Shown piece after piece: positions 5,221 to 60,176 of a stretch of DNA of 64,000 nucleotides. Position numbers and translations under genes: made by a program. Under the pieces are notes generated by a model, which saw nothing but the letters and a program-made list of their open reading frames with translations, was not told where the DNA came from and made no database searches. Source of the DNA: a virus (lineage: Duplodnaviria; Heunggongvirae; Uroviricota; Caudoviricetes); the IMG/VR virus record IMGVR_UViG_3300035703_000003. One strand, written 5' to 3'. Each line of letters begins with the position of its first letter. The stretch's first letter is position 1.

Positions 5221-5659
5221 GTATTCTATTTATAAACTACGTTTAGAAGATACACATAAACTTAGCATAACGCTCTCCGGACTAAGCCTCTGTTAGTATA
5301 TATGTGTATCGTCAAAACGTAATGTTTTGCCTAGCTTGAGATTACAGCGTAGGACGGGAGCCTTTGAGCATTACCGTTGGCCTTGCGAGCCACGTTCTCT
5401 CGTTATCCACAGAAGCCTGTTACGGTCATCCTGTATCTCCCAATGGTGCCTTTTTTGGAGAGTGGCGTTTCTCTCGTCGCACGTTGCTACTCGTCCTTCT
5501 ATCCTTCGTCTGCCTTGCGAGCAGTTCAGAGTCGCTAAACCCTTACGCTATCTTTCCGAACAACTACATCAGCCTTGCGAGCATCCGTAGACCACATTCT
5601 CTTTCGAGTGTGGCATTAACCACCTTTCACAACGTACCGGGACAGTCTTTCGCTTTTGT

Positions 5660-5730
5660 TTCAATAGTAGGAGTTGAACCTACAATCCATCGTTCTGAAT
5701 ACGATTGCATTACCGTTATGCAATATTGCG
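5660..5730 (-). ncRNA. tRNA-like element with anticodon loop ATTCAGA (anticodon UCA, would read UGA); acceptor weak, no CCA
   Basis: T-arm GTAGG-TTCAACT-CCTAC, 5-nt variable, anticodon stem ATCGT/ACGAT perfect, D-arm GCAT-AACGGTA-ATGC. Only 5 of 7 acceptor pairs form. Confidence 0.35.
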
Positions 5731-6181
5731 AACCTACTTCGATGTGCTGTCCCAGTTGCACCATATCTTGTTAGATACAGTATACAACACACCGACTGTC
5801 TTTTGCCTTGCGGGCTACTCAACGTCACTTCAAGTATCCGGGGCCTAACCCTTCCACTCTTGTAATGCTACTACGCCTTTCCTTGCGGGGTCAGACAGTG
5901 TAGCTACCTGTTAGTATTCTCCATTCGTTGCTTTGGCTGTATGCTGTTCGGGCGCCAACCCTCTTACTACTCACCGACCGGCTCTGTAGCTATCCTTTCG
6001 GACAACACACGCAACTTACTGGATACCGCCTTTCTACGGACGGGACTTGCTTTCGCATTGCGAGTCAAGTCTAACCCAGGCTTGTATAGCTGGACCATTG
6101 CTGGCGCAAGTTTATAGGAAACCTTGCTTTGGGTGCATTGCTGCACTTACCCTTAAGTTGGACGCTATACCGCCCATATAA

Positions 6182-6836: not shown

Positions 6837-6912
6837 TGGTTGCGTTGGGTGGGACTCGAACCCACGATCTTTTGGTTATGAGCCAAACGAGATGCCGCTT
6901 CTCTACCCCGCA
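6837..6912 (-). tRNA. tRNA with anticodon CAT (Met, fMet or Ile2 type); acceptor has two G.A mismatches
   Basis: T-arm GTGGG-TTCGAGT-CCCAC, anticodon stem TTTGG/CCAAA with loop CTCATAA, D-arm GAGA-AGCGGCA-TCTC. Acceptor is TGCGGGG vs CAACGCA. Confidence 0.5.
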
Positions 6913-9069: not shown

Positions 9070-9669
9070 TTATTCTACAATACCTGCACGAGCAAGGAAA
9101 TGCTCTGCTTCATCGTCAAGCACAATTGTAGTGCTTACGTTAAGCTCTAGCAACGAGTCTTGCAGTGCAGTCTTTACTCGCTTTAGACGAGCGAGTTCGG
9201 CTTTGAATTCTTCGATCTTCTCTTTATCGAAGATGTTAGTAGTGACAGTGTCGTCACCGAAACGACCGTAAACGTCTGCTTTGTCACGACCTTTAATCTT
9301 GCCTAGCTTACCGACAAGAACATCGTTAGCTACTGCAGGCTCTAGCTTGCTTAGACGCCCGTATAGCTGCATGTCTTTGTCTAGCATTGCTACATCAGCT
9401 AGCAAGCTATCAATACCGGAAGCGGCGTTAGCATGGGCTACTGCCTTGCGAATTTCGTAAAGAACGCCTAGCAGCTTGCCACGAGTAGCAAGATGTGTCT
9501 CAAAGCGGTTAGTAGCTTCGGACACCTTTTCGCTAGGCTTTTCGAATTCGTTAACCGAAACTTCTGTGCCTAGATCTAGTGTGCCTAGCATTTCATTAAT
9601 TGCGTGTTGTAGTGCGTTTGCTTTACGAAGTGAGATTTCCATTACTTTGTCCTTTGTGTTCGTTTTCAA
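9070..9669 (-). CDS. Hypothetical protein
   Basis: 199-aa ORF with overlapping genes upstream and downstream, consistent with operonic packing. Confidence 0.55.
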   Translation of the reverse strand: MKTNTKDKVMEISLRKANALQHAINEMLGTLDLGTEVSVNEFEKPSEKVSEATNRFETHLATRGKLLGVLYEIRKAVAHANAASGIDSLLADVAMLDKDMQLYGRLSKLEPAVANDVLVGKLGKIKGRDKADVYGRFGDDTVTTNIFDKEKIEEFKAELARLKRVKTALQDSLLELNVSTTIVLDDEAEHFLARAGIVE

Positions 9670-10246
9670 TTTTCTTTGCGATTACTTTGTGTAGACCTGG
9701 ATTAATAACTAGCATTTGTGTTACAACGTTTTCACGAATATAGTTTCTAATGTATGAAGTGTCAAGATTTGATTTGTCTTCAACCCAACTTACATTTTTT
9801 CGTTTACACCAATCAACAAACTCGTGCTTTCTGTTTAACCTAAACGGCCTAATAACGTTTTCATTTTGGTAAGGAATAATTTTACCCTCACCGTGCATAC
9901 TTGACCAAATCCACGTTTCTACACAATCATCCAAATGATGACAAGTGATAACAGGCTTTTGCCAGGCATTTAAAACTTTATAACGTTCGTTCCTCCAGTG
10001 TTCTTCTTGGCTTACGCCCTTAGGAACAACAGTGTTGATATACGAAGTGTATAGTTTTAGTTTAGTATCGTCTGCATACTGCAAAAGAAACTTGTGTGCT
10101 TGTTCACTTGTTTCTGTGCCGTGATGCACAAATTGTAGAGTAATACGATGATTTCTTTTTAGAAAATCAACAATAGCCATACTATCAACGCCGCCACTGC
10201 AAGCAATTACAACGTCTCTGGGTAGTTTGCTTTGGACTTTAATCAT
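9623..10246 (-). CDS. tilS: TilS-like tRNA(Ile)-lysidine synthetase catalytic domain (PP-loop ATPase)
   Basis: PP-loop SGGVDS near the N-terminus. Blocks FVHHGT, CHHLDDCVETW and WVEDKSNLDTSYIRNYIR resemble the TilS N-domain motifs (HVHHGL, QHLDDQCETF, WIEDESNQDDSYDRNFLR) as I recall them. It lies immediately downstream of two CAU tRNAs. Confidence 0.7.
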   Translation of the reverse strand: MIKVQSKLPRDVVIACSGGVDSMAIVDFLKRNHRITLQFVHHGTETSEQAHKFLLQYADDTKLKLYTSYINTVVPKGVSQEEHWRNERYKVLNAWQKPVITCHHLDDCVETWIWSSMHGEGKIIPYQNENVIRPFRLNRKHEFVDWCKRKNVSWVEDKSNLDTSYIRNYIRENVVTQMLVINPGLHKVIAKKIENEHKGQSNGNLTS

Positions 10247-10262
10247 CGCATTACTCTAGTTT

Positions 10263-10338
10263 GGTGGAAGGACTGGGACTCGAACCCAGATAGTTACGTT
10301 TATGAGACGTATGCATTCACCAATTATACTATCCTTCC
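10263..10338 (-). tRNA. tRNA with anticodon CAT (copy A; Met, fMet or Ile2)
   Basis: Acceptor GGAAGGA/TCCTTCC perfect, anticodon stem TACGT/ACGTA with loop CTCATAA, T-arm CTGGG-TTCGAGT-CCCAG, CCA encoded. Confidence 0.7.
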
Positions 10339-10342
10339 GATT

Positions 10343-10419
10343 TGGTAGGGGATACCGGACTTGAACCGATAACCTGCCGATTATGAGTCGGACGCTCTAA
10401 CCAATTGAGCTAATCCCCC
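10343..10419 (-). tRNA. tRNA with anticodon CAT (copy B; Met, fMet or Ile2)
   Basis: Acceptor GGGGGAT/ATCCCCT, D-arm GCTCAATTGGTTAGAGC, anticodon loop CTCATAA, T-arm ATCGG-TTCAAGT-CCGGT, CCA encoded. Confidence 0.7.
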
Positions 10420-10425
10420 TAACTT

Positions 10426-10502
10426 TGGTGCCCCCGGTCGGACTCGAACCGACACTACGCAGATTTTAAGTCTGCTGACTCTACCTATTGGCCTACAAGG
10501 GC
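10426..10502 (-). tRNA. Class-I-shaped tRNA with anticodon TAA (Leu codon UUA)
   Basis: Same scaffold as 8706..8782 (acceptor 3' strand CGGGGGC, D-region GGCCAATAGGTAGAGT, identical T-arm). Anticodon stem GCAGA/TCTGC with loop CTTAAAA, 5-nt variable loop. Confidence 0.6.
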
Positions 10503-10509
10503 GTAGTTC

Positions 10510-10592
10510 TGGTGCGGGCACCCGGACTCGAACCGGGACGCATTGAGCAAGAGATTTTAAGTCTCTCGTGGCTACCATTTCACCATGCCCGC
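10510..10592 (-). tRNA. tRNA-Leu (anticodon TAA), class II with long variable arm
   Basis: Acceptor GCGGGCA/TGCCCGC, anticodon stem AGAGA/TCTCT with loop CTTAAAA, about 11-nt variable region, T-arm CCCGG-TTCGAGT-CCGGG, CCA encoded. Confidence 0.65.
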
Positions 10593-10605: not shown

Positions 10606-10682
<77 letters not shown>

Positions 10683-10697
10683 AGCAAAAAACAACTT

Positions 10698-10991
10698 TTA
10701 TATCTGAACAGGTAATCGACCAGTTACGCTATACATTTTCTTGATAATAGCATTAACGTCGGATTCTGTCAAGTATCCACGAACACCTTTGTTACCGGTA
10801 ATTCCAGGAAGCTCAACAAATCCAAATTCAACTCCATCATCGGAGCCGTAAGTCGCAATTTCAAAGAGATCTGAGTCTTTGCCCATACCGTCGTCAATGA
10901 CACTTAGTTGGTAGGATCCAAAACCAAGTAGAACTTGATTTCCGTTCCTCCATTTATCTTTTTGAATCATTGTAAAGTCTGACAGTTTCAT
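10698..10991 (-). CDS. Hypothetical protein
   Basis: 97-aa ORF. Confidence 0.45.
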   Translation of the reverse strand: MKLSDFTMIQKDKWRNGNQVLLGFGSYQLSVIDDGMGKDSDLFEIATYGSDDGVEFGFVELPGITGNKGVRGYLTESDVNAIIKKMYSVTGRLPVQI

Positions 10992-59018: not shown

Positions 59019-60176
59019 TTAGCTGAAGCTTAGGTTTGCAGTTGTAACAGCAATCTTGCTTAGGTAGTCTGCAGCGTTACCAAGAGATGAAGCTTGGTTG
59101 CTTAGTTCTACATAACCATAACGTGTCATGAAGCTAACTACTGGCTCGAATGTGCTTGGATCTAGAACAGTTCCTGAGCTCATTAGAGGAATGTATGGGC
59201 AATAGAATGCCGCTGCGTCAGTTTCGGTTGAACCCTTATAACCAACTAGGACGTCATCGTTTGCTGCATACTGGTTTACATAAACCTTCATAGTGCCATT
59301 TAGAGTACCGACAAACTTGGTGTTAGTTGGTGCTTCGAATGGGCCTTCAGTTGTTCTTGCGAAAGCTGAAGTAGTTGCTGACTGTAGTACAGTTAGAACA
59401 GTTGGGCTAACAACTACCCAGTTACCTGCACCACGACGTGTGCGGGCTGCGATAGTGTTTGCATTCTTGTTGATTAGAACTGCTAGTGCAGCATGTTCGT
59501 CACCAACGAAAGTTGCAGTGCCGCTTACGCCAGCTTGGTTGTAAGTATCAGCTGCAGTGCCTGCTAGTGAACTTAGGCTTGCAATGATTTCCTGATCGAT
59601 TTCAGCAGTGATTTCTTGTGCAAGTGCTTGCATGATTTCTGCTTCAACGTCTAGGCCGTGCATTGCGTTAGCATCTTGAGCAGCTTCAAAAGTCCAACGT
59701 GCTGATAGCTTACGTGTTTTAGCTTCAACAGTTTGCTTTAGAACTTGGATGCTTAGTTTCTTACCAGCAACACCTTCTAGTGCGCTTGTAGAATCCGCAC
59801 GGTTAGTGCTTGCGTTACCTGAGTAACCAGTTGCAATTGCGAATGGGCTTAGAGCTTCATCGCCTGCAGTTGCTGAGTCAAATGTTTCAGCGTAACGAAC
59901 ACGTAGAGTGTGGATTTGGCCTACTGGGCCAGTCATTGGCTGCACACCAACGATCTCGTTGGCGATAACAGTTGGCATTACACGACGGATAACTGGAAGG
60001 ATAACTTTGTTAAGTGTAGCAATGTTACCAGCTTGTGTTGCACCTGAGGATGCAGATTCTGCAAGGTATCTCTTGGTATTCTCAAGAGTTGTTTCCATTA
60101 CTTTTTTCTTTGTTCCAGTAAGACCATCGGTAAGGGCTTCTTTGGTAGCTGACCAATTTTCAAATAGGTTGCTCAT
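59019..60176 (-). CDS. Major capsid protein (gp23-like)
   Basis: IANEIVGVQPMTGPVGQIHTLRVRY matches T4 gp23 IAFDICGVQPMNSPTGQVFALRAVY. C-terminal VYVNQYA...VGYKG...FYCPYIP...FEPVVSFMTRYGY matches T4 VYIDQYA...VGYKG...YYAPYVA...FQPVMGFKTRYGI. Confidence 0.9.
   Translation of the reverse strand: MSNLFENWSATKEALTDGLTGTKKKVMETTLENTKRYLAESASSGATQAGNIATLNKVILPVIRRVMPTVIANEIVGVQPMTGPVGQIHTLRVRYAETFDSATAGDEALSPFAIATGYSGNASTNRADSTSALEGVAGKKLSIQVLKQTVEAKTRKLSARWTFEAAQDANAMHGLDVEAEIMQALAQEITAEIDQEIIASLSSLAGTAADTYNQAGVSGTATFVGDEHAALAVLINKNANTIAARTRRGAGNWVVVSPTVLTVLQSATTSAFARTTEGPFEAPTNTKFVGTLNGTMKVYVNQYAANDDVLVGYKGSTETDAAAFYCPYIPLMSSGTVLDPSTFEPVVSFMTRYGYVELSNQASSLGNAADYLSKIAVTTANLSFS

Follow-up and report, generated by a model that had tools for sequence, protein, structure and literature searches.

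A 64,000-nucleotide stretch of viral DNA (IMG/VR virus record IMGVR_UViG_3300035703_000003, Caudoviricetes; hereafter the window) carries on its minus strand an open reading frame (ORF) of 207 residues (positions 9623-10246) that matches the N-terminal PP-loop catalytic domain of TilS, the tRNA(Ile)-lysidine synthetase, and is devoid of the C-terminal domains CTD1 and CTD2 found in its bacterial counterparts. Two tRNA genes with a CAU anticodon directly precede it. Judging from sequence, this ORF probably encodes a minimal phage tRNA(Ile)-lysidine synthetase, and the lysidine that it would install on co-encoded tRNA-Ile2 would support the translation of an AUA-rich phage. We argue that the phage tilS family to which it belongs is functional, because its members appear to be under purifying selection, are tied genomically to CAU tRNAs and bear an AUA-specific codon signature.

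A stand-alone TilS catalytic domain

The first-pass annotation had read the ORF as a TilS catalytic domain from its motifs, and these are all present: SGGVDS (residues 17-22), HHG (41-43), HHLDDCVET (103-111) and WVEDKSN..SYIRNYIR (154-171). The assignment to TilS, and not to QueC, PAPS reductase or TtcA, is borne out by profile scores, PDB matches, fold and residues. PF01171 is the sole Pfam domain reported in the ORF (E-value 1.9e-29, 103 bits against a cutoff of 27), and the NCBIfam model TIGR02432 (lysidine_TilS_N) scores 107.5 bits against a curated cutoff of 93.6, covering profile positions 2-188 of 189, while the other PP-loop models (NadE, GuaA, LarE, TtcA, AsnB) return E-values of 0.003 or more. 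No PHROGs family matches the ORF. A sequence search of the PDB returns only the TilS proteins of Aquifex aeolicus, Escherichia coli and Geobacillus kaustophilus, over their N-domains; the segment of A. aeolicus TilS that aligns with the ORF, residues 25-227, comprises the N-domain and the first turns of the linker helix. The AlphaFold2 model, computed with 55 homologues as input, has a pLDDT of 93.3. Its five best PDB matches in a fold search are all TilS (TMq 0.75-0.83, 25-27% identity), followed by TtuA (16-17% identity), with QueC, LarE and GMP synthase far below.

The 55 phage homologues were then aligned to a bacterial set made up of 16 TilS N-domains plus N-domain fragments from the A. 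aeolicus and E. coli enzymes. Every column that does not vary in this set is likewise fixed across the 55 phage sequences (R85, R88, Y89, H104, D107, E110, R133, P134, D157, N160, R167, N168 and R171), as is the PP-loop from S17 to S22, and E156, the equivalent of A. aeolicus E190, is retained in 95% of them. Translated into A. aeolicus numbering, the ORF possesses the PP-loop SGGxDS and the equivalents of R110, R113, Y114, H134, D137, E140, R167, P168, E190, D191, N194, R201, N202 and R205. By this conservation pattern, the product is a genuine TilS catalytic domain on which purifying selection acts.

The chain ends at residue 207, some 20 residues into the linker helix, so that the substrate-binding CTD1 that follows this helix is absent, and so is CTD2, the acceptor-stem-reading domain of type I enzymes. 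The lack of C-terminal domains, already pointed out in the first-pass annotation, thus stands: the ORF holds no further Pfam domain and the window no CTD-like sequence. It is shared by a large family. The best 120 database homologues are 55-99% identical to the ORF and 194-261 residues long, 119 of them falling within 194-224. An exhaustive profile search returns 328 clusters (at 50% identity) with E-values of 1e-30 or below; among the best 150 of these 328, nearly all comprise 150-280 residues and most about 200. In IMG/VR, related loci number 66, and the contigs that carry them reach 382 kb. In species-representative genomes, matches of 41-48% identity are 198-240 residues long, and a sharp break follows: those of 35% identity or less that were measured are mostly cellular TilS of 385-467 residues, with a few of 275-336. 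The truncation is therefore, as far as sequences can tell, the architecture of the family and not damage to one gene.

Short phage-type tilS genes, the 41-48% matches among them, occur on contigs of metagenome-assembled genomes labelled Woesearchaeota, Pelagibacter, Saccharibacteria, Opitutia, Paludibacteraceae, Crocinitomicaceae and Marmoricola (L069-L074 and L118; the L-numbers, from L001 onwards, denote related tilS loci, L069-L074 and L118 being genome contigs and L150 the Pseudomonas phage MIJ3). Marmoricola is a high-GC genus, and the G+C content of the contig bearing this label is 33%. As the taxonomic labels are mutually incompatible, these contigs are most likely phage DNA misassigned in binning, and they allow no host to be inferred.

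Two ways of making up for the missing domains were considered and dropped. The overlapping ORF downstream of tilS (9070-9669) might have encoded the CTDs of a split enzyme; it matches no Pfam or PHROG family and its E-values against 16 bacterial C-terminal regions exceed 0.7. A split enzyme is also unlikely because the gene downstream of tilS is conserved in the nearest relatives only. Compensation by charge is too slight to convince: the phage proteins stand at +2.5 and bacterial N-domains at +0.3, whereas the bacterial CTDs, at +7.8, hold most of the positive charge of their enzymes.

The phage family falls outside TilS types I and II: its members belong to the catalytic-domain family and have neither full-length architecture. 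Bacterial TilS is reported always to possess at least CTD1, and its distal domains contribute to both catalysis and discrimination (PMC11947777, PMC12514573). A literature text search for a 'type III' TilS yielded nothing relevant. The balance is even, in our judgement, on whether the phage proteins of about 200 residues constitute a third architectural class, that is, a stand-alone catalytic domain that would form lysidine through recognition of the anticodon arm alone, would be paired with dedicated phage tRNA-Ile2 species including one with a divergent body, and would be encoded by AUA-free genes so as to start AUA decoding where it is limiting.

CAU tRNAs and AUA codons around tilS

ARAGORN and Rfam both report three tRNAs with a CAU anticodon in the window, all on the minus strand. 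As the first-pass annotation stated, two of them adjoin tilS on its own strand: tRNA B (10262-10338) ends 15 nucleotides before the ATG, and tRNA A (10343-10419), separated from B by 4 nucleotides, lies 96 nucleotides upstream. The third, tRNA C, placed in that annotation at 6837-6912, was indeed found at 6842-6912 and extends to 6837 with its encoded ACCA.

According to Silva et al. (2006, PMC1635315), a CAU tRNA with G3, A3, C70 or T70 is neither Met nor fMet, the pairs C4-G69 and C5-G68 occur often in Ile(CAT), and fMet is marked by A11-T24 together with G12-C23. The 3:70 pair is a TilS discriminator, as confirmed biochemically in Burkholderia cenocepacia (PMC11947777). tRNA A is tRNA-Ile2-like with a canonical body (G1.U72, G3-C70, U12-A23, C29-G41, loop CUCAUAA, A73, encoded CCA), and tRNA B has a divergent tRNA-Ile2-like body (A3-U70, C29-G41, loop CUCAUAA, A73, encoded CCA). 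Neither has C-G at 3:70, which excludes Met and fMet under the above rule, and in a comparison of 32 distinct CAU tRNAs, the non-initiator ones of related loci always have G-C, A-U or U-A at this position; five of them have C4-G69 and C5-G68 as well, in agreement with the published Ile2 discriminators. Both also have the CUCAUAA loop with A37 and A38, and A73; Met tRNAs share these features, which Ile2 identity requires but which do not establish it. The matches to tRNA A sampled across the ranking in 5,426 PGAP-annotated E. coli genomes are all tRNA-Ile, and the two that were read carry CAU, so these two are Ile2; the best phage matches of tRNA A are tRNA-Ile(GAU), with 84% identity in Cronobacter phage CR8.

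tRNA B returned no blastn match in known phages or E. coli genomes, and its classification by similarity was dropped for this reason. Orthologues lie 16-58 nucleotides upstream of tilS in L001-L006, L030 and L056, and 251 nucleotides upstream in L022. Since 17 of the 21 cloverleaf pairs show compensatory changes across eight orthologues, tRNA B is, on comparative grounds, a genuine tRNA family; several of its members have U3-A70, C4-G69 and C5-G68. The B-type body has so far been found only beside tilS. Among the distinct non-initiator CAU tRNAs at tilS loci, whether A-type or B-type, more than half have an acceptor stem that ends in a G1.U72 wobble (window 10343-10419, L004, L005, L007, L008, L022, L030, L033, L058 and L070), and position 1:72 is G.U in six of the eight aligned B-type sequences.

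tRNA C is initiator-like. Its D stem (GAGA/UCUC) contains the A11-U24 and G12-C23 pairs of fMet, and it has C3-G70. It departs from bacterial initiators in that U1 can pair with A72, instead of the C1.A72 mismatch, and the three G-C pairs at 29-31:39-41 are reduced to two (G30 and G31 pairing with C40 and C39), 29:41 being U-A. Its 3' acceptor strand comprises 8 nucleotides (CCAACGCA) and does not form a regular 7-base-pair stem, owing to a mismatch and a bulge. The same kind of strand, CCARCGCA, giving a G.A mismatch and a bulged A, is seen in initiator-like tRNAs of L002 (9609-9682), L003 (9421-9492) and L004 (9118-9189), so the extra nucleotide is not a sequencing error. U1-A72 recurs in other phage initiator-like tRNAs of related loci. 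tRNA C is probably not a TilS substrate. By their identity elements, the CAU tRNAs of the window are thus two Ile2-like species and one atypical initiator-like species. The first-pass expectation that the three would serve as initiator Met, elongator Met and Ile2 fails here, as A and B both lack C3-G70 and neither resembles an elongator tRNA-Met; no canonical elongator tRNA-Met occurs within the window, although one could lie outside it.

tilS closes a string of genes on the minus strand. It begins with tRNA-Arg(UCU), reading AGA (10606-10682), followed by two copies of tRNA-Leu(UAA), reading UUA (10510-10592 and 10426-10502), all found by ARAGORN and Rfam, and then by tRNAs A and B. About 60 nucleotides upstream of the first tRNA is a sigma-70-like promoter candidate (10744-10772, minus strand; TTGACA-17-TATTAT with TG, 11/12 consensus positions), identified as a consensus match only. 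As no terminator-like site was found on the minus strand between this candidate and the end of tilS, Arg(UCU)-Leu(UAA)-Leu(UAA)-CAU-CAU-tilS is likely a single transcription unit, a cassette for A-ending codons. A second sigma-70-like match (9737-9765, minus strand; TTGACA-17-TATATT, 11/12) lies inside the 3' part of tilS and could drive the downstream gene.

The order Arg(UCU)-Leu(UAA)-CAU-tilS recurs in L001-L006, L022 and L056, and the spacing of 16-17 nucleotides between tRNA and ATG in L001-L003, L005/L006 and L056, the last being 45% identical. At 17 related loci, spanning some 12 distinct lineages (TilS identity 40-90%), a tRNA lies no more than 1.5 kb from tilS. In 16 of them the closest one is a CAU tRNA, while CAU accounts for 36 of their 213 tRNAs overall, so the adjacency is not due to chance. 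Together with the 3:70 pairs, this upholds the earlier suggestion that tilS is genomically coupled to CAU tRNAs with tRNA-Ile2 features.

Codon usage provides a further signature. The phage uses AUA heavily: AUA amounts to 17.2 per 1000 codons in the window, or 27% of Ile codons, alongside UUA at 25.8 and AGA at 12.4 per 1000. Yet none of the 15 Ile codons of the window tilS is AUA. Across 54 distinct loci, ATA represents 7.4% of Ile codons in short phage tilS genes versus 28% in neighbouring genes (odds ratio 0.20, p ~1e-44), and its share is below that of the neighbours in 51 of the 54; because the sequences are related, the p-value overstates their independence, and what can be relied on is the per-locus sign and the codon specificity. 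No other synonymous codon is as depleted in tilS as ATA. An early-gene codon bias is ruled out as the cause, since TTA, AGA, GGA and CTA are not depleted, and so is a trait of all tilS genes, since 64 bacterial full-length genes show no avoidance (ATA 27% versus 22% in neighbours). We read the avoidance as a start-up signature: an enzyme for AUA decoding must be made before that capacity exists, and its gene would therefore avoid AUA. Elsewhere in the window, the Gp23-like capsid gene (59019-60176, minus strand) contains no AUA and no UUA in 385 codons, and an unannotated gene overlapping the end of tilS (9070-9642, minus strand) contains no AUA, UUA or AGA in 190 codons; large structural genes have 22-35 AUA per 1000 codons.

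The window itself is phage DNA with a G+C content of 40%, and encodes a T4-type major capsid protein (Gp23), a T4-type large terminase, a tail sheath protein and a gp15-like sheath stabiliser. Megablast of the tilS region against known phages returns tRNA fragments as sole matches, indicating that this phage has no close sequenced relative in that region. ARAGORN reports 30 tRNAs in the window, every one on the minus strand between 72 and 10682, to which Rfam adds a partial tRNA at 1-69. Within this array lies a full-length GOLLD RNA (5333-5795, minus strand; Rfam RF02032, 193.7 bits with a gathering cutoff of 150, spanning model positions 1-416), and the 'tRNA-SeC(tca)' assigned by ARAGORN at 5658-5730 falls inside it. 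Odd ARAGORN tRNAs with 4-nucleotide or 2-nucleotide anticodons are found in L002 (10845-10919) and L003 (10698-10770), just upstream of tRNA-Ala as in the window. Other related loci carry a permuted tmRNA and an amber-suppressor-like tRNA(CUA) (coordinates given jointly: L007 10841-11252; L056 8117-8191; L005/L006 8180-8380; L022 7131-7227 and 8978-9067), and the same loci carry long tRNAs of 89-97 nucleotides with unusual A34 anticodons, namely Ser(ACU), Phe(AAA) and Tyr(AUA).

Proposed function and alternatives

In the mechanism that we favour, one promoter would probably transcribe tilS together with five tRNAs for A-ending codons: one for AGA, two copies for UUA and the two CAU tRNA-Ile2 precursors. 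Once processing has freed the tRNAs from the transcript, the enzyme would adenylate C34 of the phage CAU tRNAs with ATP, and lysine would replace AMP to yield lysidine. By analogy with bacterial TilS, these tRNAs would switch from Met and AUG to Ile and AUA, raising AUA-decoding capacity in a host where it is limiting, for a phage with 17 AUA per 1000 codons. Being itself AUA-free, tilS could be translated before this capacity exists. The activity, lysine as the amine, the tRNAs that are modified, their co-transcription with the enzyme and substrate recognition without CTDs are all inferred from sequence.

Several points weigh against this mechanism. In B. cenocepacia TilS, deletion of CTD2 or substitution of CTD1 residues strongly lowers activity (PMC11947777), so a stand-alone N-domain might be a poor enzyme or need a partner; a comparison with 16 bacterial TilS C-terminal regions found no CTD-like sequence elsewhere in the window, and outside the closest relatives tilS has no conserved neighbour. 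The E. coli TilS determinants C4-G69 and C5-G68 are absent from tRNA A (G4-C69, G5-C68) and tRNA B (A4-U69, G5-C68); both are present in tilS-adjacent tRNAs of L007, L022, L056, L071 and L074, being frequent in the family but not obligatory. The CUCAUAA anticodon loop is identical in the initiator-like tRNA C, which makes discrimination by an enzyme reading the anticodon arm only hard to explain. Roughly half of the related loci lack any tRNA within 6 kb of tilS, and the Shine-Dalgarno sequence of the window gene is weak. The contrast in AUA use between phage and host is shown for MIJ3 only. The literature searched does not describe a catalytic-domain-only TilS architecture as such, its tRNA linkage or any biochemistry of the family.

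One alternative is a TilS-derived enzyme of changed specificity or chemistry, which might act on any CUCAUAA arm, including that of host elongator or initiator tRNA-Met, and so contribute to host shut-off, or use an amine other than lysine, AUA decoding by phage tRNAs then being a partial role or none. The protein has no domain to read the acceptor stem or elbow, the tilS-adjacent tRNAs have no conserved base pair in their anticodon stems, their loop is that of the initiator-like tRNAs, and two CAU tRNAs of MIJ3, one of them Met-like, differ in the acceptor stem, where an N-domain alone could not separate them. The loop G119-R133 is, moreover, shorter than in bacterial TilS and has invariant residues of its own (I124, P125 and N130). 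We nevertheless hold a change of specificity to be unlikely: the avoidance is specific to AUA and ties the tilS genes to AUA decoding, all universally conserved TilS active-site residues are kept, and the tRNAs linked to tilS are of the Ile2 type and not of the Met type. Less probable still is a non-autonomous protein that would form a heterodimer with the full-length TilS of the host, or borrow tRNA binding from an RNA-binding partner of the phage. Such an arrangement would agree with the contribution of distal domains to catalysis in bacterial TilS (PMC11947777) and with the charge distribution given above, the bacterial CTDs being far more positive than either the bacterial N-domains or the phage proteins. 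The absence of a neighbour gene conserved beyond the closest relatives, and of CTD-like sequence in the window, speaks against a phage partner, and a conserved interface with host TilS is unlikely because the phage proteins share at most 35% identity with cellular TilS and come from phages of very different habitats.

It is very improbable that the gene encodes a different PP-loop enzyme (a tRNA thiolase of the TtcA/TtuA type, QueC or PAPS reductase), or that it is a bacterial tilS that was captured and then lost its activity. The SGGxDS fold is admittedly common to PP-loop ATPases, and TtuA is the second-best structural match, with an E-value of ~1e-10. The ORF is, however, without the CxxC iron-sulfur motif, phage QueC and PAPS reductase reach template-modelling scores of at most 0.49 against its model, and the TtcA, NadE, GuaA and LarE profiles remain at 0.003 or more where TilS_N reaches 7.6e-31. 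As to decay, 55 sequences sharing 55-79% identity with the ORF show no change at the catalytic residues, and the family comprises at least 328 clusters, which indicates purifying selection. A minimal lysidine synthetase acting on phage tRNA-Ile2 therefore remains our preferred reading.

Significance and known systems

TilS has been treated as a bacteria-specific, essential enzyme, and papers from 2025 report that efficient catalysis and the rejection of tRNA-Met both depend on its CTDs, which lie 30-70 Å away from the active site. A large phage family that keeps the catalytic domain alone would be a natural experiment on the role of the CTDs. If these proteins do form a third class, this would contradict the need for distal domains in catalysis and discrimination, and would provide a minimal, portable module for AUA decoding. 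A lone catalytic domain would have to bind tRNA and discriminate even where, as in the MIJ3 pair, two CAU tRNAs differ only in the acceptor stem, which should lie beyond the reach of an N-domain. The cultured phages MIJ3 and PA5oct make the role testable, and the window protein is a candidate minimal lysidine synthetase for structural work and AUA recoding. For phage annotation, many of the 'tRNA-Met' genes beside tilS are probably tRNA-Ile2 and should be corrected. The window gene is nonetheless another member of an already annotated kind of phage TilS, and it brings only a limited conceptual advance, since virus-borne TilS with tRNAs that act against the codon bias of the host has been published before.

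Contrary to the first-pass belief that a truncated phage TilS was undescribed, a 203-residue form was reported in 2019 in the Pseudomonas jumbo phages MIJ3 and PA5oct (PMC6892783). These putative TilS proteins of Arenbergviridae (vB_PaeM_MIJ3 gp263 and PA5oct gp37) match the window ORF at 49% identity across 89% of the protein and, like it, consist of the N-domain only. In the available text of that report, they are identified by annotation only, their function is called unknown, a role in 'maintaining host viability' is proposed and three 'tRNA-Met' genes are listed; the same text does not link TilS to the phage CAU tRNAs or remark on the missing domains (PMC6892783). As in the window, MIJ3 has three CAU tRNAs along with Leu(UAA) and Arg(UCU) tRNAs, and an AUA-poor tilS (2 ATA among 15 Ile codons) in an AUA-rich phage (60 AUA per 1000 codons); its host, P. 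aeruginosa, uses AUA at 0.9 per 1000 codons and has a low-activity TilS (PMC12514573). Unlike in the window, the MIJ3 tilS lies about 7 kb from the tRNA cluster and is not directly joined to it, and its CAU tRNAs all have the canonical body, the B type being absent. Two of them (L150, 14831-14907 and 15312-15388) are identical from position 8 to 65, anticodon arm included, and have unrelated acceptor stems, CCCUCGG (C3-G70, U4-A69, Met-like) versus GGGACUU (G3-C70, Ile2-like). This pair looks like an acceptor-stem swap on a single body.

TilS has also been found in 39 of 41 chloroviruses, where an AUA codon-bias rationale was already proposed (PMC7589089), and the Ralstonia jumbo phage RsoM2USA encodes a TilS of 349 residues (PMC8504454), which by its greater length is probably type II-like. 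As in the window, these viral TilS accompany a viral tRNA cluster, and their proposed role is to overcome a host codon bias against AUA. The chloroviruses differ from the window's phage in their eukaryotic host, and neither their TilS nor that of RsoM2USA is reported to adjoin a CAU tRNA.

Bacterial TilS of type II (A. aeolicus; PDB 1WY5, 2E21, 2E89) and type I (E. coli 1NI5; G. kaustophilus 3A2K, with tRNA) share with the phage protein the N-domain fold, PP-loop and active-site residues, at 25-27% identity. In contrast to it, they possess CTD1, which contacts the anticodon stem and elbow, and, in type I, CTD2, which reads the acceptor stem, and bacterial tilS genes do not avoid AUA.

Phage T4, like the window, has a CAU tRNA-Ile within a cluster of tRNAs for A-ending codons, and this tRNA reads AUA. 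T4 encodes no TilS and relies on that of its host, and its tRNA-Ile keeps the E. coli TilS determinants C3-G70, C4-G69 and C5-G68, whereas tRNAs A and B of the window lack them.

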